Assembly: GCA_029838195.1 (NCBI GenBank)
Contig: JALGVJ010000022.1
Coordinates: 1 to 63,537 of the forward strand
From: Promethearchaeota archaeon
GTDB lineage: Archaea; Asgardarchaeota; Lokiarchaeia; Sigyniarchaeales; SOKP01
DNA: 63,537 nucleotides
Reading direction: 5' to 3'
Shown: in pieces, positions 8,952-32,840 of the stretch
Numbering within the stretch: the stretch's first letter is position 1
Layout: each line of letters opens with the position of its first letter
Translations under genes and position numbers: made by a program
The notes under the pieces: model-generated
Told to the model about the DNA's origin: nothing
The model's database searches: none
The model's input: the letters and a program-made list of their open reading frames with translations, nothing else

Positions 8952-9443
8952 TTAATCATCAGGAATGATCACGGTAGGATCTTCCTTAATCTTATCTAAA
9001 ACGAGTTGCGTTTTGATTTCTTCCACGCCCGGCAGATTGCGAAGGCACTCTATTAATTTTATGGAATCTTGATGGTCGAGACATTTGGCCATGATGAAAA
9101 GCGGATATTCTCCCGTGACGATATAAGCATATTTTACTTGTTCCATGCTCATGATTTTATCTTTCAGCGTATCTAAAGGCTGCGAAGAATTCACGCGCAA
9201 GGAGGCCATGACCATTTCTCTATACCCTAACTGGCGACAATCAATTAAGGTGACATATTGCTTGATGATGCGTTTTTCTTTCATGCGGTTTATGCGCATG
9301 CGAATTGAAGTGGTGCTCAAGCCAATTCGTTTTTCAATGTCTCGCAAGGATGCCTTGGCATCTTCTTGCAAGATTTTCAAGATTTCTTTATCGTAACGAT
9401 CTAAGTCTGCTATTTCAAAATTGTCTGCCATTTTATCACGCAT
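8952..9443 (-). CDS. Lrp/AsnC family transcriptional regulator
   Basis: LDRYDKEILKILQEDAKASLRDI...GLS HTH; VTGEY in C-terminal RAM domain. Confidence 0.9.
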   Translation of the reverse strand: MRDKMADNFEIADLDRYDKEILKILQEDAKASLRDIEKRIGLSTTSIRMRINRMKEKRIIKQYVTLIDCRQLGYREMVMASLRVNSSQPLDTLKDKIMSMEQVKYAYIVTGEYPLFIMAKCLDHQDSIKLIECLRNLPGVEEIKTQLVLDKIKEDPTVIIPDD

Positions 9444-9727
9444 TTGGGGTGGGAAATTAATTTTCGGTGAGTTTAGCTCGTGAATAAAGTTCGAACTTTC
9501 ATATTAAACCTACAAGTGAAAATATGTTTTTTGGAATTTAAATTTTGTGTTCGTGATATTTATTTAAATGTTCTTATTTTTGATCGTGAGATTTGGCGGA
9601 AATATTTTTATTATATGTGATGTAGATTTAAATAGGAGTTTACATTTATGATACTTGACATTATAATCTTTATGAATCCCGTCAACAACAAAACAAAAAA
9701 ATAACAAAACGAAAAAAGGTTGAAAAA

Positions 9728-9952
9728 ATGGGAGAGACCACGCTTAATTGTTTGGGACTGAAATGTCCGATGCCCGTTTTGAAGACTAAAAAAGAACTGC
9801 AAAAAATGAGTTCCGGGCAAACATTAAAATTATTGGTAGACGATAAAGGGGCGTTAAAAGATATTCCCGCCTTACTGAACAAGACGGGAGATGAGTTAAT
9901 CGATATGATTGAAGAAGGAGATAAAATTACTTTTATCATTAAAAAAGCATGA
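9728..9952 (+). CDS. tusA: TusA/SirA family sulfur carrier protein
   Basis: LNCLGLKCPMPVLK (CPxP), LLVDD...DIP, 74 aa. Confidence 0.9.
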   Translation: MGETTLNCLGLKCPMPVLKTKKELQKMSSGQTLKLLVDDKGALKDIPALLNKTGDELIDMIEEGDKITFIIKKA

Positions 9953-9969
9953 AATAGGGGAAGCATTCC

Positions 9970-10297
9970 ATGAAGACATACACAATCGTGATCAGCACGG
10001 AACCCTATAAATCTGAAGCTACGGATACTTTAATCAAACTCGGCTAAGCCATCCTCAAAAGAGAGAGTAGTACTCATTCATGATGGAGTACTTATGGCAA
10101 CTAAAAAAGGGGGTTATGAGGAGATAGTGAAAAAAATGGAATCCCTCGTAGAAAAAATCCACGTGGTAAGCCCCGATTTAGCTGCCCGCGGCATTTCGTT
10201 TGAACTTGTACATGAAAACGGAAAATACACGTTAATTAATCATGACGAGCCGGTTGACATTCTGGAAAAAGCAAATAAAATTGTTTCGTGGATGTGA
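9970..10297 (+). pseudogene. Collapsed dsrE'-'dsrH remnant (5' end of dsrE joined out of frame to 3' end of dsrH)
   Basis: MKTYTIVISTEPYKSEATDTLIKLG*AILK (TAA 10045-10047) aligns to the N-terminus of 12033-12401; VVLIHDGV...DLAARGI...IVSWM aligns to 11304-11684. Confidence 0.8.
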
Positions 10298-10466
10298 GAA
10301 CTTAATGAACCCTTTTTTAATGCAAGTACGAAAAAAAGGTGAAACCCTCATGAAAACCAACGAGCTGCCTTCGGTTAACTCTAAATTTAATAAAAAAAAT
10401 ACTCTACCAAAAAAATAAAAAAAAAGGCAAGTCATTAAAAATTAAAAACAAAAATAAAAATAAAAG

Positions 10467-10892
10467 GTGAGATATGTGGCAGATAAAATTTGTTTTATTG
10501 TAAAAGATAAATCGTTCGAAAAATTCATGATGATGACAATTCTCGGCACTACTGGAGCCGCCATGGACACGGAAATGAATTTTTTCTTCACGTTCTGGGG
10601 TCTTAGACTCTTACAGAAAAAATTCAAGCCGAAAGTAGCTGGCATGCCTTTTCCTATGAAAGGAATGGCTACTAAAATGTTTCTAAAACGATTAAAAAAA
10701 TTCGGCATAGAAAATCCCTGGGAACTCATCAAGGAAGCCATTGAATCCGGAAAAATGAAACTCTATCCATGTCAGATGACCATGGATCTCATGGGAATCA
10801 AAAAAGAACAGTTATGGGATTTCGTGGAAGAGCCCGTTGGAGCCGCCAGCTTCTTGGAAATGAGTGAAGGCGCCCGAATTGTATCATTATAA
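10467..10892 (+). CDS. DsrE2-like (DsrE/DsrF/DrsH-like) sulfurtransferase
   Basis: FFFTFWGL, LYPCQMTMDLMG, VGAASFL motifs. Confidence 0.85.
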   Translation: MRYVADKICFIVKDKSFEKFMMMTILGTTGAAMDTEMNFFFTFWGLRLLQKKFKPKVAGMPFPMKGMATKMFLKRLKKFGIENPWELIKEAIESGKMKLYPCQMTMDLMGIKKEQLWDFVEEPVGAASFLEMSEGARIVSL

Positions 10893-10930
10893 TTTTTTTT
10901 TTAATCTTATAAAAAAGGAGAATAAAAAGC

Positions 10931-11165
10931 TTGACGGAGGTAAAAGAAGAATTCCATCGAGAATTCAAACTTGATGAAGAATTTAATCCAGATTTTTTCA
11001 AGGAGGAAAAGATAAAGATATGAATAAAATTAAAGAGCGCCTTTTCCCGCTGCCTCCCGTAAAGTAGAACCGAGAGACTTGCCTAAAACCAAGCACAAGC
11101 ATTTAGGAACGGAACATAATGAAGAAGCAGAGCAATGGTACATGTATTTTGAAGTAGTAAAGTAG
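10931..11165 (+). pseudogene. Degenerate TusA-like remnant
   Basis: AAGGAG SD plus TTG; pieces in different frames: ...KERLFPLPPVK* and PRDLPKTKHKHLGTEHNEEAEQWYMYFEVVK*, resembling the TusA CPxP region, DIP motif and C-terminal strand. Confidence 0.4.
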
Positions 11166-11303
11166 TCACATGATAGGAATCGTCCATTTTTTTTACTGAG
11201 TTTTATTTTTTTTTATTTATTTGCTTCTCATTTTTAATAAATTGTCTTTTTCCAACAATTTTTATTATTCTAACTCCTTAATTAGTACCATTCATATTCA
11301 ATC

Positions 11304-11684
11304 TCATAGCCACGATACTATGTTAGAATGCGCAATTAAAAGATCCACCAAGGTTTCATGATCAATGACACGAATTGGCTCACGGATTTCGTCAGGATTA
11401 ATTCCTCTTGCCTCTAAATCGGATTTTAATGCGTGAAATGTAGCGGGGAGGGTGAGCAATTCTTTCATCTCTTCAGCAAGCCGGGAAGTTTTTGATAATC
11501 CCATCACGCCATCATGCATGAATACAAAACAGGCGGCTGCGCCCTTTTCAAGTTGGTGTTTTATAAAATTAACTAATTTGTCTAATCCCTTCCATGTATT
11601 AGCACTATATCCGAACAAGTATAAAATTTTTTTCGATTCCATGAGAAGAGCCCCCCATTTAATATTTAAAAGTAAAATCTGCAT
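11304..11684 (-). CDS. dsrH: DsrH/TusB family sulfur relay protein (start possibly ATG ~11642)
   Basis: HDGV, DLEARGI, LVDL...IVSW. Confidence 0.8.
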   Translation of the reverse strand: MQILLLNIKWGALLMESKKILYLFGYSANTWKGLDKLVNFIKHQLEKGAAACFVFMHDGVMGLSKTSRLAEEMKELLTLPATFHALKSDLEARGINPDEIREPIRVIDHETLVDLLIAHSNIVSWL

Positions 11685-12024
11685 ATAATATTAATTCGGA
11701 AATCATCTCGTGATTCGCCACGGTAAGGTGTTCCAGGGGAAGTAAATCCTGTTCTGTCAATCCCAAGAACTCGAGATCTTCTCTCGATACGATGATCTCC
11801 ACTTCAGAAAGTTTTATTAGCTTCAAGATGTCATCGATGGGATCGACATTGAGAGCAGCTGGCTGGAGTCGCTTGTGAAGGACATGAATCGCATCCTTCA
11901 ATAATACCACCTGACAATCCTCTATGTCCCCCACGGCCAAAATTCCGGTGGCTAATCGTAAGGCTTCGAGCACGGCATTTTTTCCAAAAGGAGAATCCTC
12001 GCAGATGATCAAAATAGAGTGCAT
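11659..12024 (-). CDS. dsrF: DsrF/TusC family sulfur relay protein
   Basis: SPFGK..EALRLA, LLKDAI, EDLEFLGL; middle gene of the triad. Confidence 0.75.
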   Translation of the reverse strand: MHSILIICEDSPFGKNAVLEALRLATGILAVGDIEDCQVVLLKDAIHVLHKRLQPAALNVDPIDDILKLIKLSEVEIIVSREDLEFLGLTEQDLLPLEHLTVANHEMISELILYADFTFKY

Positions 12025-12032
12025 GAAATGGT

Positions 12033-12401
12033 TTACCTCCCGGGTCCGAAGAAGATGACCCGATCTGAATTAGTAATTAATTCTGATAATCCGCCTAATC
12101 CTTCCAAGCAGGCATTTTCTATGAATTCAGAGGATTTTATTCCCGTGATGCTTATCCACGTGCTACATGCTGCGATTTTTGCACCGTGTTTCTCACTAAA
12201 CTCGACAAGTTTTTTTGATAAGTCTCGCATAGAACTTCCTAGCTCTCGATTTCCTTTAATGCTATACACTCCACTGCCATAAAAGAAGATCCCCAAAACT
12301 TCATGCCCTTTTTTTATGATGGCCTCGCTTAAATTAAGAACCGTATCCAAGGCTTCCCGGGCATAGGGTTCCGCAGCTACCACGAATGAAAATTTTACCA
12401 T
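12033..12401 (-). CDS. dsrE: DsrE/TusD family sulfurtransferase
   Basis: EPY, GHEVLGIFFYGSGV, active-site Cys in AACST, GLGGL..SDRVIFF. Confidence 0.85.
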   Translation of the reverse strand: MVKFSFVVAAEPYAREALDTVLNLSEAIIKKGHEVLGIFFYGSGVYSIKGNRELGSSMRDLSKKLVEFSEKHGAKIAACSTWISITGIKSSEFIENACLEGLGGLSELITNSDRVIFFGPGR

Positions 12402-20731: not shown

Positions 20732-22054
20732 ATGATCAAGCTTTCATATTTGAAAGGAACACTACTAATTAACGGAGATTACAATATTCCCCATGTAGTT
20801 TATGATGAGAGAATAAATAAGTATCGAGCAGAAGCTTTTTATTACGGCGATATTATCAGGTATTTAAAAAATTCTGATTTTTATCATGAAGATAATGTTT
20901 TAAACTTAATTCCTTGTCCTAATTTTACCGCTAAAATCAGATTAAGGAAATACCAAAAAGAAGCCTTCAAGCGATGGATGCAAACCAAGAAAGGCGTGAT
21001 TGTCATGCCCACGGGTTCCGGAAAGACAATTATTGCAATGAAGATTATTGAAAAATTAAACACATCCACTTTCATAGTAGTCCCCACCTTAGATTTAACG
21101 TATCAATGGAAAGAACAACTTGAAAAAGAATTTTCCATGAAAATTGGAGAGTTTTCAAGTCGGCAAAAAGAGCTCCTTCCTATCACGGTATCCACGTACC
21201 AATCTGCTTATATTCATGCTGAGAATCTCGGAAATAAATTTAAATTATTAATCTTCGATGAGGTCCATCATCTTCCCTCAGAGAGTTTTCGACATATTGC
21301 CGAAATGTTTGCTTCTCCATTTCGATTAGGTCTCACGGCTACATATGAAAGAGCAGATGGTCTGCACGGAGTATTGCCCAAGCTGGTGGGGGGAAAAATA
21401 TATGAAATTGAACCGGCTTCTCTAGCAGGCACGTTTCTTGCTGATTATGAAATAAAAAAAATCATGGTTTCTTTCACGGAGCAAGAGCAGCAAGAATATA
21501 AAGCTGCACGTGGAATTTTCACGAATTATTTAATTTCACACCACATAAAAATGCAATCTCCGTCTGATTTTAATAAATTGGTGATGCGAGCGGGAAGGGA
21601 TCTGGAGGCGAGAAAAGCATTGTTAGCCAAGAATAAAGCGGACAAAATTGCTTTTAATTCTGAGAATAAATTGAAAATGCTTAGTAGTTTATTAAAGAAA
21701 AGTAATAAAACAATAATTTTCACGCGTTATAATAGCATGGTTTACAAAATCTCAAGGCAATTTTTTATCCCGTGCATCACTCATGAGACCAATAAAGAAG
21801 AGAGAATAAAAATCCTGAATAAATTTAAAGAAGGAACCTATTCCGCCATTGTTTCTTCCCAAGTACTTGATGAAGGTATTAATGTCCCCGAGGCTAATAT
21901 CGGTATCATTTTTAGCGGAACGGGAAGTTCCAGAGAATACGTGCAGCGGTTAGGAAGATTATTGAGACCCGCAGAACATAAAAAAGCAATTCTCTATGAA
22001 ATGATAACGAAAGATTCAATAGAAATAAGAACTTCTTATCGGAGGCGATCTTAA
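20732..22054 (+). CDS. xpb: XPB/Rad25-like SF2 DNA helicase
   Basis: LRKYQ, PTGSGKT, DEVHH, LTAT, DEGINVP, QRLGRLLR. Confidence 0.9.
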   Translation: MIKLSYLKGTLLINGDYNIPHVVYDERINKYRAEAFYYGDIIRYLKNSDFYHEDNVLNLIPCPNFTAKIRLRKYQKEAFKRWMQTKKGVIVMPTGSGKTIIAMKIIEKLNTSTFIVVPTLDLTYQWKEQLEKEFSMKIGEFSSRQKELLPITVSTYQSAYIHAENLGNKFKLLIFDEVHHLPSESFRHIAEMFASPFRLGLTATYERADGLHGVLPKLVGGKIYEIEPASLAGTFLADYEIKKIMVSFTEQEQQEYKAARGIFTNYLISHHIKMQSPSDFNKLVMRAGRDLEARKALLAKNKADKIAFNSENKLKMLSSLLKKSNKTIIFTRYNSMVYKISRQFFIPCITHETNKEERIKILNKFKEGTYSAIVSSQVLDEGINVPEANIGIIFSGTGSSREYVQRLGRLLRPAEHKKAILYEMITKDSIEIRTSYRRRS

Positions 22055-22055
22055 A

Positions 22056-23522
22056 ATACTTCCAAAAAATTTATTTTCGGGATCATTTAAACGAGGTAAA
22101 ATCATTCCTTCTTATCTTCATGATACTCACATTGCTGAAGAACTCATCTCAATTTTCAGAGATTTTGAAGGTAAAAAATATGATGTGTTAAGAAATAAAT
22201 TAAAGTCATTCGAAGAAGATAAGCATGATTTCAAGATCATTAGGGGTCTGGCCGAATTGTTGAAAAGAAGATGTGAATTTCACCCTAATTCATCACTCGA
22301 TAGTAAGGAGGTCCGCACTTTTCTATTTGATCATGGCTTCGTACTAAATGAAGAGAAGAGAAAAGGAGTATTGAAAGCGGCAGCAGATCATTTTGGGGTT
22401 TCGGAGCAAAAAATTGAGGAAGCAATGTTTATGGACTTATTAAAAGAACAAATTTTTACCATTCCGGATCCTCCCACGCCTCAAGAACTCATTCGTTCTT
22501 ATAACTTATCTCTCATTCAAACCCTCCTTTTTAATGCTGTAGAATTAACTTTTACGGTGTTTGATAATTTCCAGCAGATTTTTAGGATGATTAATTATTT
22601 AGGTTTAATGTACGAGATTGAGGATAAAAAAATTAAGGTATTTGGCCCCCTATCGATTCTAAAAAAAACCCGAAAATATGGTACTTCTCTTGCCAAACTA
22701 ATTCCATTAATTCTGCGAGCTGAAAAATGGTCTCTTGAAGCAAAAATTCTAATGAATAGGGGAAATCAACCTAAAATTTTCACTTTTGAATTAAATTCTG
22801 CAGAAAATATACTTTTTCCGAAATACAATGAATTTACTAGTGATGAGATCTTTGATAGCGAGGTAGAAAAAAAATTTTATAATGAATTCAAGATTTTTGC
22901 CCCGGATTGGGAGATAAAAAGGGAACCCACGTTCATTAAAGCCGGGAATCACGTGATCATTCCGGATTTTGGATTCTTTAAAAATGGAATAAAATTATAT
23001 TTAGAAGTTGTTGGATTTTGGACAGAAGCATATATAAAAAGAAAAATTGAAAAATTCAAGCAAACCGAAGAAGAAATCCTAATTGCATTAAATAAAAATT
23101 TAAAATGTTCAAGAGAAGATTTTAACGATGAAGTAATAATGTATGATAAATGGATACCCATTAAACCCATTTTAAAGATTTTGAAAAAAATGGAACAAGA
23201 ACAAGTTCAAAAAATTCTTAGTGAACTCAATTCCGTTAATATATCTGAAGATATCATTAATTTACGCGTCAAGGCACGTCAATTGAACATTATTCCTGAA
23301 GCATTAAAGGAATTAAGATTACCCAACCACTTTCTCATTGGAGAAATATTAGTCTCAAGAAAATTTTTATCGCGTCTGAAAGAAGAGATCGGAGATGAGA
23401 GGGATTTTTCCAAGATTAAAATTATATTAAATAAATACGGATTAACAAATAAGGCACTGGATTTATTGGGGTTTAAAATAATCTGGGATAAATTAATTCC
23501 CATTAAGATTCAAGAAATATAA
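22056..23522 (+). CDS. bax1: Bax1 / DUF790 nuclease, XPB partner (probable ATA start at 22056)
   Basis: YNLSLIQTLL, KYGTSLAKL, FDSEVE, IPDF, LEVVGFWT; open frame from ATA CTT CCA just after the xpb stop. Confidence 0.85.
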   Translation: MLPKNLFSGSFKRGKIIPSYLHDTHIAEELISIFRDFEGKKYDVLRNKLKSFEEDKHDFKIIRGLAELLKRRCEFHPNSSLDSKEVRTFLFDHGFVLNEEKRKGVLKAAADHFGVSEQKIEEAMFMDLLKEQIFTIPDPPTPQELIRSYNLSLIQTLLFNAVELTFTVFDNFQQIFRMINYLGLMYEIEDKKIKVFGPLSILKKTRKYGTSLAKLIPLILRAEKWSLEAKILMNRGNQPKIFTFELNSAENILFPKYNEFTSDEIFDSEVEKKFYNEFKIFAPDWEIKREPTFIKAGNHVIIPDFGFFKNGIKLYLEVVGFWTEAYIKRKIEKFKQTEEEILIALNKNLKCSREDFNDEVIMYDKWIPIKPILKILKKMEQEQVQKILSELNSVNISEDIINLRVKARQLNIIPEALKELRLPNHFLIGEILVSRKFLSRLKEEIGDERDFSKIKIILNKYGLTNKALDLLGFKIIWDKLIPIKIQEI

Positions 23523-23624: not shown

Positions 23625-24083
23625 TCAAACGCGAAGTGAGGTAGTATCTGGTTGCTTAATGGGCTTGAGAACTACACATACGCGTTCCACGCTCTTCACA
23701 TCACTTCTTGCTTTAAAAGATTCGATGAGAGCGTCTAATTCATTAATTTCTGGCACTACTACTTTTATCAACACTCCGCATTCTCCTGCAAGGAAATAGA
23801 CCTCCTCGCATTGCGGTAAGACTTGGGTTTCTCTCAATAATTCTTTTATTTCAGCACTACTCTTAGGAATTACTGTTATGAACGCCATTATACATTTTTC
23901 TTCTTCCCTACACACGCGAATAGTAAACCGCTCAATTACACCATCTTCTTGAAGCCGTAATACTCTTTTTCTCACCGTGGATTCGGACAAATCAACGGCT
24001 TCAGCAATCTCTCTATAAGGTCTTCGGGAATCCTCTATTAACATTTCTAAAATTCTTTTATCTTTATCATCCAAATTTTTCAA
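23625..24083 (-). CDS. Lrp/AsnC family transcriptional regulator
   Basis: LDDKDKRILEMLIEDSRRPYREIA...SESTVRKRV. Confidence 0.9.
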   Translation of the reverse strand: MKNLDDKDKRILEMLIEDSRRPYREIAEAVDLSESTVRKRVLRLQEDGVIERFTIRVCREEEKCIMAFITVIPKSSAEIKELLRETQVLPQCEEVYFLAGECGVLIKVVVPEINELDALIESFKARSDVKSVERVCVVLKPIKQPDTTSLRV

Positions 24084-24159
24084 ATATTTTTTTCACCTCA
24101 CGTTCAACTTTTAAAAAAAAAATAAAAAAACATGGTTTTTAAAAAAATTGAATTAGTGT

Positions 24160-25098
24160 TTAAAAATCTTTAAGCAACGGTGCGAATAATCTTTCGTATT
24201 CTACCGCCATGCAATGAATTCCTGCAGCTTTCGTGGTTTTCTTAATTTCTTTGATGAAGGGCTCAAAAAATTCGATGTTAATTTTATCGATAGCGGCATA
24301 TTTCGCTTGCTTGTTACCTTTATTATCTTTTTCTGCCTTCTTCAAGGATTTTAATAGATCTTTTGGAACGGAAACACCAGGGATGTAGTTATCAAAATAC
24401 CATGCAATTCCGTATGATTTTAAGGGAAAGATGCCCAAGAGGACAGGAACATTGAATTGTTCCAACTCTTTTAGGAAATCTTTCGCTTGATCGATATCAA
24501 AGGCTGTCTGGGTTTGAATGAAATCGACTCCTTGTTCCACTTTTCTCCCTACTTTTAAGATTTCCGGCTCGCGTGGATTGCTATTGGGATTAGCGACACA
24601 TCCATAATTCATTTCGATCTTGCCTCCTTGTAATTCATTTCCTTCATAATCCGTCCCCTCATCAATCATTTTGGATAACATTTCGCAAAATTGCGTGCTA
24701 TCTATATCATAAACAGGCCGGCCTTTTTTATGATCGCCTAATGCCGTATGATCTCCTGTTAGAGTTAGAATATTTTTCAGTCCTAACACCGCACCTGCCA
24801 GCACGTCTCCAAACAACGCCACGCGATTGCGATCTCGTACCGTGACTTGCCATACTGCTTCTAACCCTACTTTTTCTTGCACTAAATAACTGGGAACTAA
24901 GGATGACATGTATGCATCGCCTTGCGGCCCGTCTGTCACGTTCGCTGCCACGATCTTGCCGGTTTTTTTCATTTCTTCCGCACCATGAAGAATGTCGCTT
25001 AAATCCAAGATTTTCTTGGGTTCTAATTCTCCCGTAATGACAAACTTTCCTTTCTGAATTTCTTTACATAAATTACTATATGCTGGTCGTTTCGCCAT
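24160..25098 (-). CDS. metF: Methylenetetrahydrofolate reductase
   Basis: ELEP, NVTD, RDRNR, LTGDH, GVDFIQTQ, GIHCM. Confidence 0.9.
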   Translation of the reverse strand: MAKRPAYSNLCKEIQKGKFVITGELEPKKILDLSDILHGAEEMKKTGKIVAANVTDGPQGDAYMSSLVPSYLVQEKVGLEAVWQVTVRDRNRVALFGDVLAGAVLGLKNILTLTGDHTALGDHKKGRPVYDIDSTQFCEMLSKMIDEGTDYEGNELQGGKIEMNYGCVANPNSNPREPEILKVGRKVEQGVDFIQTQTAFDIDQAKDFLKELEQFNVPVLLGIFPLKSYGIAWYFDNYIPGVSVPKDLLKSLKKAEKDNKGNKQAKYAAIDKINIEFFEPFIKEIKKTTKAAGIHCMAVEYERLFAPLLKDF

Positions 25099-25794
25099 TT
25101 ATTGACTCGCCTCCTCCTTTTCTTCTTGATTTCCATATTCTTTATATATCTTAAGATAGCTTGGACTTGTTGAAAGCCGATAATCTCTTGGCGGCCGATA
25201 TTTCTTAAATAAATCCAACCGATTGAATTTCTTCAAGCGTTTCCACATTTCAACCCAGGCACAAGGTACCGTATATCCCCCCACTTCACACATGCCATCC
25301 ACCATTCCACCGCAAGGTCCATTGCTCAAGTGCTTAGCACATCCAGCTCTTGGACATACGCCCCCTGTTTCTCCGAGAATGCATTCACCACATGTCTCGC
25401 AAAATTCAATGAAATTATTTTCGCTGTTATATTGAGCACCCCCGAAATGACTGTTCTGTGCAGGGTACGTCATTATATCAGGAAGTACTTTATTCATCAT
25501 GACGACACCTAAACCACACGCTAAGGAAACAATAGCGTCATATTCTTCTATTAAAGGGCGCACGGTGGTTGCAGCAATGCGGTCATCACATTGACGCAGA
25601 ACGGTAATTGCTTTCCATTTTAATTCCTTTCCTTCTGTTCTTGCTTTTAATTCTAATAATTGTCCAACCATTTTTGCCTCATTCAATGAACGGGGCGGCT
25701 GACAGCAACCATCGCAACCAGCAATTAAAACCTTGTTGTATGGCTTTATTAATTCATATATTTCTTCAATATCTTTTAGTTGGGTTATGATCAT
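25099..25794 (-). CDS. metV: MetV / MTHFR C-terminal-domain Fe-S protein
   Basis: GCDGC, RQCD, ACGLG, CETCGEC...GGVCP...CAKHLSNGPCGG...CEV...CAW. Confidence 0.9.
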   Translation of the reverse strand: MIITQLKDIEEIYELIKPYNKVLIAGCDGCCQPPRSLNEAKMVGQLLELKARTEGKELKWKAITVLRQCDDRIAATTVRPLIEEYDAIVSLACGLGVVMMNKVLPDIMTYPAQNSHFGGAQYNSENNFIEFCETCGECILGETGGVCPRAGCAKHLSNGPCGGMVDGMCEVGGYTVPCAWVEMWKRLKKFNRLDLFKKYRPPRDYRLSTSPSYLKIYKEYGNQEEKEEASQ

Positions 25795-25886
25795 TTTTTT
25801 CTTTCACTTTTCTTTTTTTCATGAATTTTTTTGATTTTTTTTTAATTATTCATGACTTTAATTTTAAGGATAAAAAATACCTTTAT

Positions 25887-26771
25887 TTAGGAGGTTAATT
25901 TTTCAATTAATTTTTGGGGTTTCACGGATCTTTTGGTCAAATTTAAATCTTCAAGGGGCACGCCCAATGCAATAGCCATGATCTCGGGAAGATATAGCAC
26001 GGGAATATCGAATTCTTTTCCCGTCCTTCTTGCTATCAATTTCTCTTTACGATCATACTGCGTGATACAAGCAGGACAGACAGCTATAAGAGCATCAATA
26101 TCCTCTCCTCTTTCACTTAATTCTGTCATTTTTTCTTCCACGAGATGTTCTCCAATCTCATCTTGAAGGCGAGCGCAATATCCACAGCACTCCAACTTAG
26201 TGGCAAAATCGATGGTTCTAGCACCTAATACTTGAAGTATCTTGTCAATTTTTTCAGGTTTTTCCGGATGATCAAATTGCATGATTTTACTTGGTCTTAT
26301 TAGGTGACAACCATAATGAACAGCAAACGTTAAATTGTCTAAAGGTTTCATCACCATCTTTTCTATTTTTTCTAAACATTCCGGCTGGGTAAAAAGTTCG
26401 ACAAAATGGTAAACTTTTGTCTTTCCACTATAATGATGATTGATTTTTTGAAGGACTCCATTGATCTTGTTTAAATACTCCTCATCTTCTTCTAAAAGCA
26501 CGCTTACCGTTTTCAACGTTTCATAACAGCCCGAACATATCGTGAGCATGTCCAATCCCATTTTTTCCGCAATAGAAAGATTTCTTGCTCCTAAAGTTAT
26601 CCACGTGTCAATATTTAAGGATTGCAGCGAAACGGGTTCTGGACAACAGCTCACGCCTTTCATTTCTCTCAATTTCACGTCTAAAATATTCGCCACGTCC
26701 CTAAATGCCTTTTCAAGTTGAGGCAATTTCAAGGGAATTGTACACCCTAAATATAATGCAAATTCATTCAT
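25887..26771 (-). CDS. hdrB: Heterodisulfide reductase subunit B
   Basis: YLGC, SCCP, CSGC, HYGCH, ECCG, CPAC (two CCG-type domains). Confidence 0.92.
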   Translation of the reverse strand: MNEFALYLGCTIPLKLPQLEKAFRDVANILDVKLREMKGVSCCPEPVSLQSLNIDTWITLGARNLSIAEKMGLDMLTICSGCYETLKTVSVLLEEDEEYLNKINGVLQKINHHYSGKTKVYHFVELFTQPECLEKIEKMVMKPLDNLTFAVHYGCHLIRPSKIMQFDHPEKPEKIDKILQVLGARTIDFATKLECCGYCARLQDEIGEHLVEEKMTELSERGEDIDALIAVCPACITQYDRKEKLIARRTGKEFDIPVLYLPEIMAIALGVPLEDLNLTKRSVKPQKLIEKLTS

Positions 26772-27304
26772 TTAATCTTCCCCTCCTCTTTTCTTATTAA
26801 AGCTCCTAATCCTGTTTCATCAAAAATTATTTGAATTTCCTCTAACGGAGGTGGCATGATTTCTGGAAGCCCTAAACGCTCCCTCCGTTTGTCAATGTTT
26901 TTCTTCAAACCCCCTGTATAGGGAACCACAAAGCCATTATTATATATAGTTTCTACTGCACCCGAATATTCTTTTGGAATTTTGCCCTCCGAAGCAGCCA
27001 TGTTTCTTAATAAGGCTAAAATAAAGGAATAATCCACGTTCTTTGGGCACCTTTCCGTGCATCTGTGACACAGGCTACATGTCCATATCGCTTTACTACT
27101 CAATACTTCTTCCTTCAGGCCTAATAGACAAGAAGCCACCACCCGATGAGGCTGTATATCTACATATTCAGTTACGGTGCAGCCTGAACTACATACACCG
27201 CATTGGATGCATTTTAATAAAGATTTAGCCCCAATCTTCTCGGCAATTTCATATCGGAATTTTAAATCTAATTCGCTTGATTTTTTTTTAAGCATTTCAG
27301 TCAT
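26768..27304 (-). CDS. hdrC: Heterodisulfide reductase subunit C
   Basis: CIQCGVCSSGC and WTCSLCHRCTERCP 4Fe-4S motifs. Confidence 0.92.
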   Translation of the reverse strand: MTEMLKKKSSELDLKFRYEIAEKIGAKSLLKCIQCGVCSSGCTVTEYVDIQPHRVVASCLLGLKEEVLSSKAIWTCSLCHRCTERCPKNVDYSFILALLRNMAASEGKIPKEYSGAVETIYNNGFVVPYTGGLKKNIDKRRERLGLPEIMPPPLEEIQIIFDETGLGALIRKEEGKIK

Positions 27305-27305
27305 T

Positions 27306-30300
27306 TCATACCGCCACCTCTTCTTTTTTTTCTTTTTTCATGATTTTATCACCCGTTTTTGGCAAGGGGCCTAATTCCTTTATCTGCTTGACGAAATCCG
27401 TAACCACCTCAGCAAATCGTTTACCTTCGCTAGCAGAGACCCACTCCAGTCGGAGGCGCTTCGGATCAATTCCTACTTTCTCTAATATTTCTTTAATTTC
27501 ATTGTAACGTTGTAGCATGTCGTAATTTCCTTCTAAATAATGGCAATCCCCTAAATGACAGCCTCCGATAAATACGCCGTCAGCGCCTTCCAAGAATGCT
27601 TGTAATATGAAATGCTTGGGGATTCTTCCCGTACACATGACCCGAATAGGACGAATATTCGTGGGATATTGAAAACGACTCACTCCGCACGTGTCAGCTC
27701 CCGCATAACTACACCAATTGCATAAAAATGCCACGATTCGGGGTCTTTCATCGATAAAATCTCCTTTAACGGCTTCATGGATCATCGGATATAATTGCTC
27801 ATCCGCAAAATGGCTCATGGTAATGGCTCCCGCCGGGCATGCGGCCGCACAGTCGCCACAACCCTTGCAAAGTAAGGGATTTGACTCTGAAACCATTATT
27901 TCATTATCAAAATTTACTCCAATGGCGCCAAAATTGCATGCTTCTTCACATTTTTGACAAGCAATACATAAAGCGGGATTCACGACAGATACGAGCGGTT
28001 CATTTTCCACCTCGCCCGAAATAAGCGGAATTAGCGCATGAGCTGCCGCAGCCCTGCCTTGGGCGATGGAATCGGCGATTCCTTTTGGACCATGGCACGT
28101 ACCTGCAAGATAAATTCCATCCGTGGCAAAATCCACGGGACGTAATTTCACGTGAGCTTCCAAGAAGAAGCCATTTTGATCTCGGGCACACTTGATCATC
28201 TCTCCCAATTTTTCCGTTTCATTGGGAACTAACGGCGTGGAAAGTACCACGCGATCTGCGTTAATCGTGAGATCGACCTGAGTCAAGATATCTTTTACAT
28301 TCACGGTAAGATGATCGTTTGTAATATCTACGGTGGGATAGTCATTGAACCGAATGTAGTTAATATTTTCCCGAGCTTTCCAATAATAAGGTTCCTCATC
28401 CGTACCCACTCGGATATCTCGATATAACACGAAGATATTCGAATTGGGGTACTGTTCTTTCACGTATAAGGCATGTCGTATGGACTCAGAACAACAGATC
28501 AACGAACAATATGTGACGCCATTTCCGCCTTCCGGTTGCCGAGATCCCACGCAATGAATGAACACCAGCGTTTCGCCATCTTTTAATTCATTATTTCTTA
28601 ATTTTTCCGATAATTCAAGTTGGGTCATGACCTTGTCTTCCATTCCTTCTTCCCCATAATGATACCATCCCACGGGCTTATACTCATGAGTACCCGTTGC
28701 CATAATAATCACTCCCACGTTTAACTTGATTTCCTCGTTTTTTCCATTATCTTTCACTTGTACCTTGAAATCACCAATAGACCCTTTCACGCTCTTTATT
28801 TCCGAATTCAAATACGCCGTGATGAGCTTCTGAGCATTGAGTTCCTTCAATGTCTTCTCTAAAAACTCCGCAGAATCAATTCTATCAAAATTAATCTTAT
28901 AAATGCGATTTAATTGCCCGCCCAATTTATCTTCTTTTTCCACGAGATGGACTTTAAACCCTTGTTTTGCAATTTCCATCGCTGCACTCATGCCGGCAAT
29001 CCCTCCTCCCACTACTAGCGCCTCGGGAACGACTTTCCCCTTGATTTTGAATTCGGGTTTAAGGGCACGTGAGCGAGCTACGCCCATGCGGATGAGATCT
29101 TTTGCTTTATCCGTGGCTTTTTCTCGCTCCGTCATGTGTACCCACGAATCTAATTCGCGTATGCTCACGAAATTAAACAAATATTCATTTAGTCCTGCTT
29201 CCCGGATGGTATGCTGAAATAAAGGCTCATGAGTGCGCGGCGTACATGCGGCTACCACCACACGATTCAAGTTTAACTCTTTTATCTTCTCTTTAATTAT
29301 ATCTTGAGTTAAACTCGAGCAACTATATTTGTTATTCATGGCAAAAACTACATTAGGCAAGGTTTTTGAATATTCCACGAGGGCCGGAACATCCACGTAT
29401 CCCCCAATATTAACGCCACATTCGCATACAAATACTCCAATCCGAGGTTCATCCCATTCAGAGACCTCTCTGAGGGGAGGTAATTCCACTTTCATTTCCT
29501 CCTTGCTCAAGGGAACCGCATGTAATGATGCCAAAGCTGCCGCTCCTCCCGCTTTCGCAACGGAGTTCGCTATATCGTCGGGAGATTGACACGATCCCGT
29601 GATGTAAACGCCTTCTCTTGTAGAACGTAAATCCTCCGTGGAATCCGGTGTTCTATAAAATCCTAATTCATTTCTCTCTATCCCTAAGATTTTACTCATT
29701 TCCTCAGCATCCGTGCGAGGAATGACCGCACTTGCTAATACCACCAAATCAAACTTGTTCGTTTCCACCTCTCCCGTATCCAAATTCGCATGCTTTACGT
29801 ATAAATCATGCGTTTCCGGATCCTCCCGAATATCTCCCGGAATCCCGTGATAATACGTGAGTTTGTACTCTTCTTTCGCACGTTCTATGAACTCTTCTTG
29901 ATTTTTCCCAATCACCCTCACGTCATTGAAAAATATCGTTACCTTCGTATTGGCCGCATGTTCTCGCGTGACTACGCCTTCCTTTGCCATGTACATGCAA
30001 CAAAATTTCGAACAATACGCACATAAATCTTCATTTCTCGAGCCCACGCAAGCTATGAAAGCTATCTCATGCGCATGCTTTCCATCCGAAGGTCTAAGGA
30101 TTTGCCCGCCAGTGGGGCCAGACGCACTTAGTAGCCGTTCATATTGCATAGCCGTTATCACGTTGGGGTATTCTCCATAATGATACCGAGTTAAAACGCT
30201 AGGATCTAAAAGATCATATCCCGTTGCGACGATGACTGAAGCGACCTCATATTCTACTTCCTCGTCCTCCATCTCGAAATTAATGGCATCCGCTTCACAC

Positions 30301-30803
30301 GCTTGCAAGCAGAGTTTACATGCTCCTTTCGTTAGATATAAGCATTTATCTTTATCTATCGTGGCTTTTCGAGGAACCGCTTGAGGGAACGGAATGTAAA
30401 TGGCTGTTCGCATGCCCATGCCCTCTTCAAACTCATTAGGAATTTTTTTCATGGGACATTTTTCAGAACACGCCCCACAGCCCGTACATTTATCGATATC
30501 CACGAATCGGGATTTCTTCAAGATTTTTACCTTGAAATTTCCCGCCTCTCCGGTCAATTCTTTAATTTCTGAATAGGTCAATAATTCTATGTTAGGGTGC
30601 CGTGAGACTTCGACCATTTTTGGAGCAAGGATGCAAATGGAGCAATCTAGAGTAGGGAAAGTTTTGTCTAGTTGAGCCATGCGTCCTCCCACCGATGGAG
30701 TTTTTTCTACCAAGATAACGTGATATCCTTCATCTGCGAGGGTCAAGGAAGCTTCAATGCCACTTATGCCGCCGCCAATCACTAAAATATTGCTATTTTT
30801 CAT
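27306..30803 (-). CDS. hdrA: Tandem HdrA modules fused to a C-terminal MvhD domain
   Basis: Two GGGIxG FAD motifs, DKTFPTLDC, two CVGSR...CSxxCC clusters, ferredoxin motifs; MvhD CNWCSY, RVMCTGR, GCHLGDCHY. Confidence 0.92.
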   Translation of the reverse strand: MKNSNILVIGGGISGIEASLTLADEGYHVILVEKTPSVGGRMAQLDKTFPTLDCSICILAPKMVEVSRHPNIELLTYSEIKELTGEAGNFKVKILKKSRFVDIDKCTGCGACSEKCPMKKIPNEFEEGMGMRTAIYIPFPQAVPRKATIDKDKCLYLTKGACKLCLQACEADAINFEMEDEEVEYEVASVIVATGYDLLDPSVLTRYHYGEYPNVITAMQYERLLSASGPTGGQILRPSDGKHAHEIAFIACVGSRNEDLCAYCSKFCCMYMAKEGVVTREHAANTKVTIFFNDVRVIGKNQEEFIERAKEEYKLTYYHGIPGDIREDPETHDLYVKHANLDTGEVETNKFDLVVLASAVIPRTDAEEMSKILGIERNELGFYRTPDSTEDLRSTREGVYITGSCQSPDDIANSVAKAGGAAALASLHAVPLSKEEMKVELPPLREVSEWDEPRIGVFVCECGVNIGGYVDVPALVEYSKTLPNVVFAMNNKYSCSSLTQDIIKEKIKELNLNRVVVAACTPRTHEPLFQHTIREAGLNEYLFNFVSIRELDSWVHMTEREKATDKAKDLIRMGVARSRALKPEFKIKGKVVPEALVVGGGIAGMSAAMEIAKQGFKVHLVEKEDKLGGQLNRIYKINFDRIDSAEFLEKTLKELNAQKLITAYLNSEIKSVKGSIGDFKVQVKDNGKNEEIKLNVGVIIMATGTHEYKPVGWYHYGEEGMEDKVMTQLELSEKLRNNELKDGETLVFIHCVGSRQPEGGNGVTYCSLICCSESIRHALYVKEQYPNSNIFVLYRDIRVGTDEEPYYWKARENINYIRFNDYPTVDITNDHLTVNVKDILTQVDLTINADRVVLSTPLVPNETEKLGEMIKCARDQNGFFLEAHVKLRPVDFATDGIYLAGTCHGPKGIADSIAQGRAAAAHALIPLISGEVENEPLVSVVNPALCIACQKCEEACNFGAIGVNFDNEIMVSESNPLLCKGCGDCAAACPAGAITMSHFADEQLYPMIHEAVKGDFIDERPRIVAFLCNWCSYAGADTCGVSRFQYPTNIRPIRVMCTGRIPKHFILQAFLEGADGVFIGGCHLGDCHYLEGNYDMLQRYNEIKEILEKVGIDPKRLRLEWVSASEGKRFAEVVTDFVKQIKELGPLPKTGDKIMKKEKKEEVAV

Positions 30804-30985
30804 GATCTATCAAATTTTTAATTTTTTTTTCCCAATTTAAATACGTTCCTAAGGAATAATTTCCTAATTTAGTAAATATGTAGATATCCTTTAAATATCT
30901 TTCTTTTTATTTAAAAAACTGTTTAATATTTAAAGGAACTGATCTGAATATAGAAAATTTAAATGGAGAGAATGAACAATTGCGG

Positions 30986-31029
30986 TATATACCATTAAAT
31001 TCTTCAATATATACCATTAAATTCTTCAA
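30986..31029. repeat. Perfect 22-bp tandem duplication
   Basis: TATATACCATTAAATTCTTCAA at 30986-31007 and 31008-31029. Confidence 0.9.
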
Positions 31030-31457
31030 TATACGACTATTTTTAGCATTAAATTACTGAAATTGTATCAGAATAATGACAGAAAGAGTCATTAATTGCT
31101 AAATTTAGTGATGAAAAAAGGAATCATTATCGTTTCATGTAACAACTATTATAAAAAAGAATTATTTTTCATCATATAAAAAATTTAAAGGATCGTTTTC
31201 AGTACATGATTTTTTCTTTTCGGCAATTCAAGTAGTCATCCTTTCAATTATAACTAAGAAAAACTTGCACGTATTATCAAGATTGAACATTCTTCCCCTT
31301 CTTATTATTATAATAGGGTGCTTGAAAGGATTCACGCTCTTTTATGAATTTTAAAAAAATTTCATAAATATTAAAATCCATTAACCATGATTTTAAGTCA
31401 AGCATTAATGAATACATGTAACAAGAGTTAAATCATCAATAAAAAAAGGAGAAAACC

Positions 31458-32840
31458 ATGAAAGAAGAAAGCGAAGAGGGAATGGAAAATAGAAAATATT
31501 CGTGGTGGTATCACATTCAATTCAATCTCGTAATGTTCATGCTACCGGGAACGTACGGCATTTTTGGTACTCATTTTTTCTGGTATTATGAAAAAGAAGT
31601 ATTATTACCGGTTATTTTCGTGGGAATTGCGAATGTAATCTATTTGTTATGGGACGCTATCAATGATCCCCTCATAGGATACCTATCTGATCGTCCTACA
31701 AAATGGAGTAAGAAATATGGAAGGAGATTTCCATACATCGCAATAATGGGGATTCCAACCGCACTCACAATGATGCTATTATTCATTCCACCGTTTACCG
31801 ACGCACGAGTAAATCCTATTCCCGTATTTCTTTATGTAGTCATCATCCTCGTGATTCATGAAACGGGATATACATGTGTAAGCCTTACAAGAGCTCTATT
31901 TCCTGAGAAATTCCGTTCAGACTCAGAACGGAGAAGGAATGCCGGAATTGGTTTATTAATTTATAACATGGGCTATCTTTTCGGATTTTTAATCCCGATG
32001 CTCATTGTTACTCCAGGAGATATTCCCTCTTATTTTTTAGGAGCTATGATATTGACCATTCCTAATATCTTGACCTTTCTTATAGGATTGCCGGCCGTGC
32101 GAGAAGAGAAAGAAATGAGAGAACGCATCTCCTCTATAGAAAAAGTATCTTTTTTAGAAGCATTGAAAAATGCGGTTTCTAAAAAAAATGTGCGCGCCCT
32201 TATCCTAGTTCGGATGGCAAATCAAACCTTAGGCGCATGTATCATGGCATCCATCTATTATTTTGCAAATTTTATTTTACTGAATCCTGATGCAGATATT
32301 CCGGTAATCTTGGCTTGGTTTGGAGCGGGTTTGATTAGTATTCCTTTTTGGATGAAAATGCATGGCAAGGTAGGAAATCGAAACTTACAAGCCATGGCGA
32401 TACTCGCCTATGTTTTTGCTCTTATCCCCTTCATGTTTGTTAAAACATTGACAGGAGCGGCTATTGCAGGTTTTATTTTAGGGTTCATGATGGGGGCGAT
32501 TAGCTTCATTACATACCCTATATATTCAGATGTAGTAGATGAGGCTACTATCATTGATGGGAAGCGACAAGAAGGGATATATCAAGGCGTATTGGCATTT
32601 TTTGACCGATTTGGGATAATAATGCAGCCCATATTATTTACTATTGTTCATATAATCACCGAATTTGATCCTGAAGCAACCACTCAAACACCTATTGCTC
32701 AACAAGGCATAATAGCTTTAATGACTTGGATTCCCGGAGCAATTGCGCTCATAGCATGCATTATCTTTTGGTTAAAATATGATTTGACCAAGGAAAAACT
32801 TATAGAAATACGGAACCAATTACAAGAATTAAAATTGTAA
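31458..32840 (+). CDS. MFS transporter, GPH (MelB-like) family
   Basis: WDAINDPLIGYLSDR, GRRFPY, DVVDE...RQEGIY. Confidence 0.9.
   Translation: MKEESEEGMENRKYSWWYHIQFNLVMFMLPGTYGIFGTHFFWYYEKEVLLPVIFVGIANVIYLLWDAINDPLIGYLSDRPTKWSKKYGRRFPYIAIMGIPTALTMMLLFIPPFTDARVNPIPVFLYVVIILVIHETGYTCVSLTRALFPEKFRSDSERRRNAGIGLLIYNMGYLFGFLIPMLIVTPGDIPSYFLGAMILTIPNILTFLIGLPAVREEKEMRERISSIEKVSFLEALKNAVSKKNVRALILVRMANQTLGACIMASIYYFANFILLNPDADIPVILAWFGAGLISIPFWMKMHGKVGNRNLQAMAILAYVFALIPFMFVKTLTGAAIAGFILGFMMGAISFITYPIYSDVVDEATIIDGKRQEGIYQGVLAFFDRFGIIMQPILFTIVHIITEFDPEATTQTPIAQQGIIALMTWIPGAIALIACIIFWLKYDLTKEKLIEIRNQLQELKL

Follow-up and report, generated by a model that had tools for sequence, protein, structure and literature searches.

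The window analysed here is a stretch of 63,537 nucleotides from a Promethearchaeota archaeon of the Lokiarchaeia (assembly GCA_029838195.1, contig JALGVJ010000022.1, positions 1 to 63,537 of the forward strand). Between positions 23,625 and 30,803 it carries a cluster of hdr, mvhD and metVF genes, which we describe as a candidate Hdr-type methylene-tetrahydropterin reductase. A preliminary description had listed six co-oriented genes with gaps of 1, -4, 92, 0 and 76 bp; the list of open reading frames (ORFs) agreed exactly and placed all six on the minus strand (Table 1). Pfam and NCBIfam searches confirmed the names hdrA(x2)-mvhD, hdrC, hdrB, metV and metF, and the sixth gene, absent from the title of that description, was found to encode an Lrp/AsnC-family regulator.

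The first gene encodes a fusion protein with two HdrA-type flavin adenine dinucleotide (FAD) domains, 4Fe-4S domains and a C-terminal FlpD/MvhD domain (PF02662, 180 bits). Its best NCBIfam model was NF040770, HdrA2, with 1194.7 bits against a cut-off of 1100. HdrB (TIGR03288, 267 bits) and HdrC (TIGR03290, 97 bits) both scored under the equivalog cut-offs of NCBIfam, and HdrB matched PF02754 (CCG) twice. MetV matched PF12225 with 98.7 bits and MetF matched PF02219 with 91.9 bits.

Table 1. Features of the hdr-metVF-lrp locus (positions in the window)
Feature	Position	Strand	Description and basis
hdrA(I)-hdrA(II)-mvhD fusion gene	27306..30803	-	1165 aa; Pfam, NCBIfam, PDB 5ODC alignment
HdrA half I, residues 1-440	29484..30803	-	5ODC_A 145-513 alignment; invariant columns; E356/K409 criterion
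HdrA half II, residues 451-935	27999..29453	-	451-616 align to 5ODC 2-167; self-alignment of halves
C-terminal 2x[4Fe-4S] ferredoxin domain of HdrA half II, residues 936-1010	27774..27998	-	Pfam, 5ODC alignment, complex prediction
Fused MvhD/FlpD domain, residues 1020-1150	27354..27746	-	Pfam, 5ODC alignment, complex prediction
hdrC	26768..27304	-	178 aa, 4Fe-4S dicluster protein; Pfam, NCBIfam
hdrB	25887..26771	-	294 aa, both CCG cysteine motifs intact; Pfam, NCBIfam, 8RVU_b alignment
hdrB-metV spacer	25795..25886	-	92 bp; T-run after hdrB
metV (type A)	25099..25794	-	231 aa; Pfam, alignment
metF (type A)	24160..25098	-	312 aa, subunit with methylenetetrahydrofolate reductase (MTHFR) fold; Pfam, NCBIfam
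metF-lrp spacer	24084..24159	-	T7, T7 and T10 runs, then GGTGA Shine-Dalgarno-like site
Lrp/AsnC-family regulator	23625..24083	-	152 aa; helix-turn-helix + RAM ligand domain; PF13412, PF01037
Intergenic region upstream of hdrA, common to divergent MFS gene	30804..31457	.	AT-rich TATA-like stretches

Conservation of the gene neighbourhood

A scan with MetV yielded 44 related loci (72-90% identity), on which genes were mapped by tblastn and ORFs of the window proteins. All of these loci came from metagenome-assembled genomes (MAGs) bearing Asgard names, among them Promethearchaeota and Promethearchaeia, which fits the Asgard-like host proposed earlier. The results showed that an hdr gene lies directly upstream of metV in 44/44 loci, in two arrangements. 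In both, a double-HdrA::MvhD fusion precedes metV-metF-lrp, and lrp was found downstream of metF in 42 of the 44 loci (63-87% identity), indicating that the arrangement does not arise by chance. Arrangement 1 has the order of the window, hdrA-hdrA-mvhD, hdrC, hdrB, metV, metF, lrp, with HdrA about 80-87% identical. In arrangement 2, distant hdrC and hdrB genes about 8 kb upstream are followed by a single HdrA::MvhD and then by a paralogous double HdrA::MvhD, 47-49% identical. The latter is separated from metV by 30-40 nt that hold nothing but a GGAG site, leaving no room for a promoter there. In arrangement 2, represented by G006:C147:11300-18857 and loci L040-L064, the single HdrA::MvhD located between hdrB and the double HdrA::MvhD is an extra protein of about 816 aa, and arrangement-2 genomes lack the roughly 80%-type orthologue of the window's HdrA.

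We also compared 41 genomes at the level of the order. MetF of the window's type, here called type A (at least 62% identity), lay about 2.2 kb from an orthologous HdrA (at least 71%) on one contig in 15 genomes including this one, and the remaining MetF-HdrA cases were split at contig ends. Synteny across Asgard genomes, a check suggested in the preliminary description, is thus strongly conserved for metVF and hdr. The wider conserved frame consists of a phosphoenolpyruvate carboxykinase gene, a small GTPase gene, the hdr/metVF/lrp cluster and a metallo-beta-lactamase gene. Two insertions set the window apart from this frame: an XPB helicase/DUF790 pair behind lrp (20732-23522) and a major facilitator superfamily (MFS) transporter gene ahead of hdrA (31458-32840). 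A TusA/DsrE sulfur-relay locus of the window (8952-12401) was considered as the source of an HdrBC substrate and rejected, none of its genes being syntenic with the cluster in the 44 loci. The best 120 matches of a large protein search were all Asgard orthologues of about 80% identity, with no bacterial sequences among them, and the Loki's Castle sediment data of 2015 already contained an orthologue (LCGC14_0648630).

Redox motifs of the fused HdrA and predicted docking of MetV

The fusion protein was aligned with the methanogen complex 5ODC. Residues 5-378 aligned to 145-513 of 5ODC_A, residues 451-616 to 2-167 and residues 875-1009 to 513-647 (735 bits for HdrA against its methanogen relative), while residues 1020-1151 matched MvhD (5ODC_D, 170 bits). 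Half I is an FAD/thioredoxin reductase (TrxR)-like domain with an inserted 2x[4Fe-4S] ferredoxin domain, and it has neither the N-terminal domain nor the C-terminal ferredoxin domain of HdrA. Its Cys54 and Cys57 correspond to C194 and C197 of 5ODC, and the near-flavin cluster motif C252/C264/C268/C269 is kept. E222 and K274, invariant in 14 sequences, correspond to E356 and K409 (5ODC numbering), the residues that mark bifurcating flavins (PMC9430772). The inserted ferredoxin domain occurs in half I only, with C106, C109, C112, C116, C154, C162, C165 and C169 invariant.

Half II starts with the HdrA N-terminal cluster domain (451-585), followed by a second FAD/TrxR-like domain, the C-terminal ferredoxin domain and MvhD. 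Its FAD domain is about 85 aa shorter, the inserted ferredoxin domain being gone, and has no equivalent of Cys197; self-alignment of the halves revealed S and R at the E/K signature positions. The HdrA ligands named here are invariant in an alignment spanning both paralogue groups. Judged by these motifs, the fused HdrA is an asymmetric pseudo-dimer in which only the first flavin domain carries the bifurcation signature, a complementary, symmetry-breaking pattern of the kind noted previously for fused HdrAs (PMC9012536). The double-flavin HdrA proposed earlier is borne out by the two FAD/TrxR-like domains, whose order is that of Sporomusa ovata (PMC9430772). Published orders of the halves conflict: Chadwick et al. 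give the reverse order for HdrA3/4 and Moorella (PMC9012536), whereas that of Kremp et al. is the order seen here (PMC9430772).

HdrB aligned over its full length to the methanogen HdrB 8RVU_b (238 bits), with both CCG motifs for non-cubane clusters kept. No GltD-like NAD(P)H-binding domain, as in the Moorella form, was present in the Pfam or NCBIfam matches of the fused HdrA, and the HdrA and MvhD segments cover the whole protein. Type-A MetV has 12 invariant cysteines (C27, C30, C69, C93 and the rest within C132-C178 inside PF12225) and an acidic C-terminal tail; the tail is lacking in the type-B MetV encoded by a second metVF pair of this genome. A sequence comparison of MetV with the PDB found no relative, which leaves no template-based reading of the interface.

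We then modelled MetV with HdrA residues 451-1165 by complex prediction. The score was 0.67, compared with 0.00 for the best of three controls. The mark applied was reached by 58/80 solved complexes and 2/110 mismatched pairs, counts that hold only roughly for this pair because the alignments were user-built. Runs shared at least 98% of the MetV-HdrA contacts, and the predicted local distance difference test score (pLDDT) of the partners was at least 85. The predicted interface comprises the N-terminal CxxC region of MetV (residues 8-10, 28-29, 33-55), the cysteine loops of the C-terminal ferredoxin domain of HdrA (945-954, 989-992) and three MvhD segments (1062-1071, 1106-1112, 1149-1151). 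Complex modelling had been proposed earlier for MetV with HdrBC/MvhD; the model obtained here with HdrA/MvhD supports docking of MetV on the C-terminal ferredoxin/MvhD part of HdrA.

Conservation of the predicted contacts was then compared among paralogues. Type-A MetV proteins keep 17-23 of 25 contact residues and type-B MetV proteins 3-4 of 25, although the latter are 37-42% identical elsewhere. On the other side, the metVF-linked HdrA paralogues of arrangement 2 keep 15-17 of 24. MvhD paralogues of this genome that are not linked to metVF retain 1-5 of 12-15, although their overall identity is 53-58%. These comparisons indicate that the predicted contacts are kept selectively in metVF-linked copies, with the exception of one paralogue on contig C1.

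The Mer step and the proposed reaction

The genome, which is 96.6% complete, was searched with profiles. Mtd, Mch and Ftr lie together on contig C22, with a second Ftr elsewhere, and CdhC and RFAP synthase, the committed step of methanopterin synthesis, are present. Fhs and McrA were not found in this genome. The best genome match to Mer (TIGR03555) reached 149-152 bits against a cut-off of 348.7. A search of the 41 relatives at E <= 1e-60 yielded no Mer, and 28 of these genomes have Mtd. A Mer gap in Lokiarchaeota is known, and a COG2141 protein has been proposed as a distant Mer alternative (PMC8027215). With RFAP synthase and the genes of the tetrahydromethanopterin (H4MPT) branch in place and no Fhs found, the enzyme probably acts on methylene-/methyl-H4MPT rather than on folate. 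The coupling to a folate/pterin C1 carrier suggested in the preliminary description therefore drew support from genome content on the pterin side and gained nothing on the folate side from Fhs; FolD is present. The comparison of fhs/folD with mer/mtd was divided likewise, with Mtd and FolD present, Mer below the cut-off and Fhs not found. As McrA was not found, the heterodisulfide of coenzymes M and B (CoM-S-S-CoB), which in methanogens is a product of Mcr, is unlikely to be the substrate.

MetF is 36-40% identical to clostridial MetF. In a maximum-likelihood tree of MetF, rooted at the midpoint only, type A formed a group (support 100/100) that joins the group holding type B (95/93). The Bathyarchaeota representative adjoins Asgard MetF (95/87), forming a clan with it, and the bacterial representatives including Clostridioides are set apart. 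The phylogeny suggested earlier, against acetogens and Deltaproteobacteria, thus returned a PF02219 protein grouped with archaeal rather than bacterial representatives, under a midpoint root. Type-A MetF occurs in 22 of the 28 genomes with Mtd and in 1 of the 13 without, a co-occurrence that serves as a lead and not as a test, kin not being independent.

The type-B pair (45%/37% identity) lies on the short contig C24, has no Hdr attached and adjoins an MtaA/MtbA-like methyltransferase gene. In three relatives, the type-B locus is 4-6 kb from the type-A cluster. Directly upstream of type-B metV-metF, a 499-aa protein without Pfam or NCBIfam match is encoded (L023:4859-6358, contig C24); it is retained upstream of type-B metVF at 60-63% identity in G016, G017 and G024, and could act with type-B MetVF as an additional subunit or partner not yet recognised.

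On balance, we favour the reading that the cluster encodes one multi-subunit Hdr-type methylene-tetrahydropterin reductase. MetF, with its flavin and MTHFR fold, would interconvert methylene and methyl C1-pterin, and the cysteine-rich, iron-sulfur MetV would relay the electrons. The N-terminal CxxC domain of MetV would dock on the C-terminal ferredoxin domain of HdrA and the fused MvhD. This surface is the site where hydrogenase or formate dehydrogenase feeds methanogen Hdr, and we propose that MetVF takes the role of these enzymes. Electrons would then reach the half I flavin, the sole flavin with the bifurcation signature. There they would divide, some passing via the inserted ferredoxin domain to ferredoxin and the rest via HdrC and the two non-cubane clusters of HdrB to an unspecified thiol/disulfide.

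The potentials of the couples are about -320 mV for methylene/methyl-H4MPT, about -200 mV for methylene/methyl-tetrahydrofolate (H4F, THF), about -500 mV for ferredoxin and about -140 mV for the heterodisulfide. At about -320 mV, the H4MPT couple sits at the middle potential of Hdr-type bifurcation and would be the middle-potential partner of ferredoxin/disulfide bifurcation or confurcation, whichever the direction, whereas methylene-THF is proposed to play a high-potential role in acetogens. With H4MPT and not folate as carrier, the energetics of acetogens (methylene-THF at -200 mV) need not apply.

In this way the cluster probably fills the step left by the missing Mer, and a bifurcating complex of this kind could conserve energy. 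More tentatively, and with some doubt, we suggest a new bifurcating reaction, distinct from that of acetogens, in which methyl-/methylene-H4MPT, held by MetF and connected through MetV to the MvhD port, replaces the H2, formate or F420H2 of methanogen Hdr complexes. If true, H4MPT-driven bifurcation would account for the absence of Mer as well as for the abundance of Hdr/MvhD paralogues in Lokiarchaeia.

Several observations weigh against the reading of a single Hdr-type reductase that replaces Mer. The first concern the Mer step itself. Because a second, Hdr-free MetVF pair exists, either pair may replace Mer. Six genomes with Mtd have no MetF other than a type-B-like one, so that MetVF without this Hdr cluster may suffice for the step. 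An F420-dependent luciferase-like protein on contig C50 (L003:1294-2418) also has Mer as its best family match (152 bits), and the presence of FolD makes a folate pool possible. Type-B MetVF or the C50 protein could then perform the Mer step, and the Hdr-linked pair would work elsewhere in C1 metabolism, perhaps together with FolD on methyl groups carried by folate, or on those supplied by methyltransferases; the methyltransferase gene beside type B and the published proposal of such a luciferase-like candidate (PMC8027215) point the same way. We consider this unlikely, since 22 of the 23 genomes with type-A MetF have Mtd, while type-B-like MetF, found in genomes with and without Mtd, also occurs in 7 of the 13 without. 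Moreover, the C50 protein scores less than half the Mer cut-off, close to its scores for other classes of F420-dependent luciferase-like monooxygenases (F420-LLM), and Fhs was not found. The C50 protein corresponds to the 'distant mer alternative' that was put forward for Loki-3 MAGs (PMC8027215).

The second group concerns the link between hdr and metVF. A T6 run (25872-25877) lies just past the hdrB stop, and a T-run stands at the same place in 14/14 aligned arrangement-1 loci, in many cases with short complementary bases on either side. The run is a possible partial terminator or attenuator that could end transcription before metV, and with the 92-bp spacer it would suit a different explanation, in which hdrACB and metVF are separate units that share regulation or history, MetVF acting alone and Hdr using another donor such as a hydrogenase or an FrhB-like protein. 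In this genome, 13 MvhD domains were counted, and there are many HdrA paralogues whose partners are different. Furthermore, the unlinked selenocysteine-type HdrA/MvhD on contig C1, beside an FrhB-like gene, keeps 14 of 24 contacts, so that the surface may serve for donor docking in general. Nevertheless, we give adjacency without a complex little chance: hdr precedes metV in all loci of both arrangements, one of them with a spacer of 30-40 nt, the complex prediction supports binding, with a score above that of the best control and a mark that few mismatched pairs reach, and apart from the C1 paralogue the predicted contacts are conserved only where the genes are linked. A single hdrACB-metVF transcript is putative, as the T-run may limit read-through into metV.

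Four of the 13 MvhD matches in the genome have in-frame TGA codons. The C1 cluster (L073:6900-10996, about 88900-93000) consists of HdrA (669 aa, two in-frame TGA), MvhD (one TGA) and an FrhB/FdhB-like gene, and looks like an Hdr module that contains selenocysteine and has a donor subunit of the F420 type. At L073:13959-15566, an MttB-family methyltransferase frame with two in-frame TGA codons lies beside a Cys/Met pyridoxal phosphate enzyme.

The third point concerns bifurcation. Purification of the intact bacterial complex has not been achieved so far, and what serves as its second acceptor is not known (PMC9430772). The complex might form without bifurcating, Hdr being a wire from ferredoxin, or from a thiol via HdrBC, to MetVF, which would make the enzyme a simple methylene-pterin reductase. 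Non-bifurcating HdrA complexes exist, bifurcation was not demonstrable for the Moorella and Sporomusa enzymes (PMC9430772), and stand-alone MetVF of Clostridium ljungdahlii uses reduced ferredoxin (PMC8515935). However, the E/K signature of half I, the inserted ferredoxin domain, all cluster ligands and the CCG motifs of HdrB are invariant in two paralogue groups. All three redox ports that a bifurcating enzyme needs are thus kept, which makes a simple wire rather improbable.

Relation to known systems and regulatory DNA

The Hdr-type, or fourth type, of methylene-THF reductase, HdrCBA-MvhD-MetVF, has been described in S. ovata and Moorella thermoacetica (Mock et al. 2014; Kremp et al. 2022; via PMC9430772). 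Pull-downs in S. ovata indicated MetV-HdrA, MetF-HdrA/HdrB and MvhD-MetF contacts (PMC9430772). The Asgard cluster resembles this system in having six protein functions in one gene cluster, a cysteine-rich MetV and a MetF that is probably of the MetVF type. By published description, which was the basis of the comparison with S. ovata and Moorella HdrA, S. ovata HdrA likewise has an extra N-terminal TrxR-like flavin domain bearing the E/K signature, and its C-terminal part likewise comprises an N-terminal-type cluster domain, a TrxR domain without inserted ferredoxin and a C-terminal ferredoxin domain. The differences are that MvhD is fused to HdrA in the Asgard cluster, that Asgard half I retains the inserted ferredoxin domain, which S. 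ovata lacks, and that the GltD/NAD(P)H domain of Moorella HdrA was not seen in the Asgard fusion. The gene order is hdrA-C-B instead of C-B-A, the identity of MetF to clostridial MetF is limited to the 36-40% given above and it groups with archaeal sequences, the methyl branch of the host probably uses H4MPT and not folate, and a conserved Lrp regulator follows metF.

Among archaea, MetFV-HdrA-MvhD clusters have been reported in Candidatus Syntrophoarchaeum, and MetF of the type found in anaerobic methanotrophic archaea of group 1 (ANME-1) has been reported in Asgard MAGs (Chadwick et al. 2022, PMC9012536). That MetF/MetV clade also includes Bathyarchaeota and Asgard archaea and was proposed to replace Mer on H4MPT, and MetFV is linked to HdrA and MvhD in Syntrophoarchaeum as it is here (PMC9012536). 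Unlike ANME-1 metFV, which does not adjoin hdr (PMC9012536), the Asgard cluster has retained hdrCB, together with one fused gene for the double HdrA::MvhD. The methanogen complexes HdrABC-MvhAGD and HdrABC-FdhAB-MvhD (PDB 5ODC, 7BKB, 8RVU) have the same flavin signature, cluster ligands and CCG motifs; they contain an HdrA dimer where the Asgard protein is a fused, asymmetric pseudo-dimer, with MetVF predicted on the donor side, and no hydrogenase or formate dehydrogenase genes were present in the Asgard cluster. HdrA2 of Methanosarcina acetivorans HdrA2B2C2, an F420H2-dependent bifurcating Hdr (PMC5296606), is also an HdrA::MvhD fusion. Compared with it, the Asgard protein has an extra N-terminal half-HdrA, and its presumed donor is MetVF, not F420H2.

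The preliminary description had ranked the cluster as the strongest candidate for an uncharacterised energy-conserving system in the window. The system is better known than that ranking suggests, as the enzyme type is known from bacteria and both the Syntrophoarchaeum clusters and Asgard MetF have been reported (PMC9012536). The Asgard cluster is a conserved archaeal variant of the Moorella/Sporomusa Hdr-type reductase and not categorically new. A limited literature search, which is no proof of absence, found no paper describing an hdr-metVF operon in Asgard archaea. Among the relatives of the archaeal ancestor of eukaryotes, Lokiarchaeia are those sampled best, and their energy metabolism is debated between hydrogen-dependent acetogenesis and syntrophic fermentation, with a gap in the H4MPT pathway at Mer (PMC8027215). 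An Hdr-wired MetVF is a concrete, testable candidate for this step and suggests a tie to the ferredoxin and thiol pools. The predicted docking site and its type-A-specific contacts are targets for co-expression, cross-linking and cryo-electron microscopy, and work on the Asgard complex could settle the mechanism of the bacterial Hdr-type reductase.

Finally, the regulatory DNA of the cluster was inspected. The hdrB-metV spacer is purine-rich ahead of the metV start. A structured RNA element in this spacer was considered, but the folding signal was weak (z -2.1) and no element is claimed. The long T-runs after metF indicate that lrp is probably a separate transcript; its product may regulate the cluster. 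When the 180 bp upstream of hdrA were aligned over 14 loci, neither a promoter nor an operator proved to be conserved. At 30986-31033, about 185-230 bp upstream of the hdrA start, lies a perfect tandem repeat of 22 bp in 2.2 copies; it is not conserved upstream in relatives, and could be a regulator-binding site or a recent duplication.

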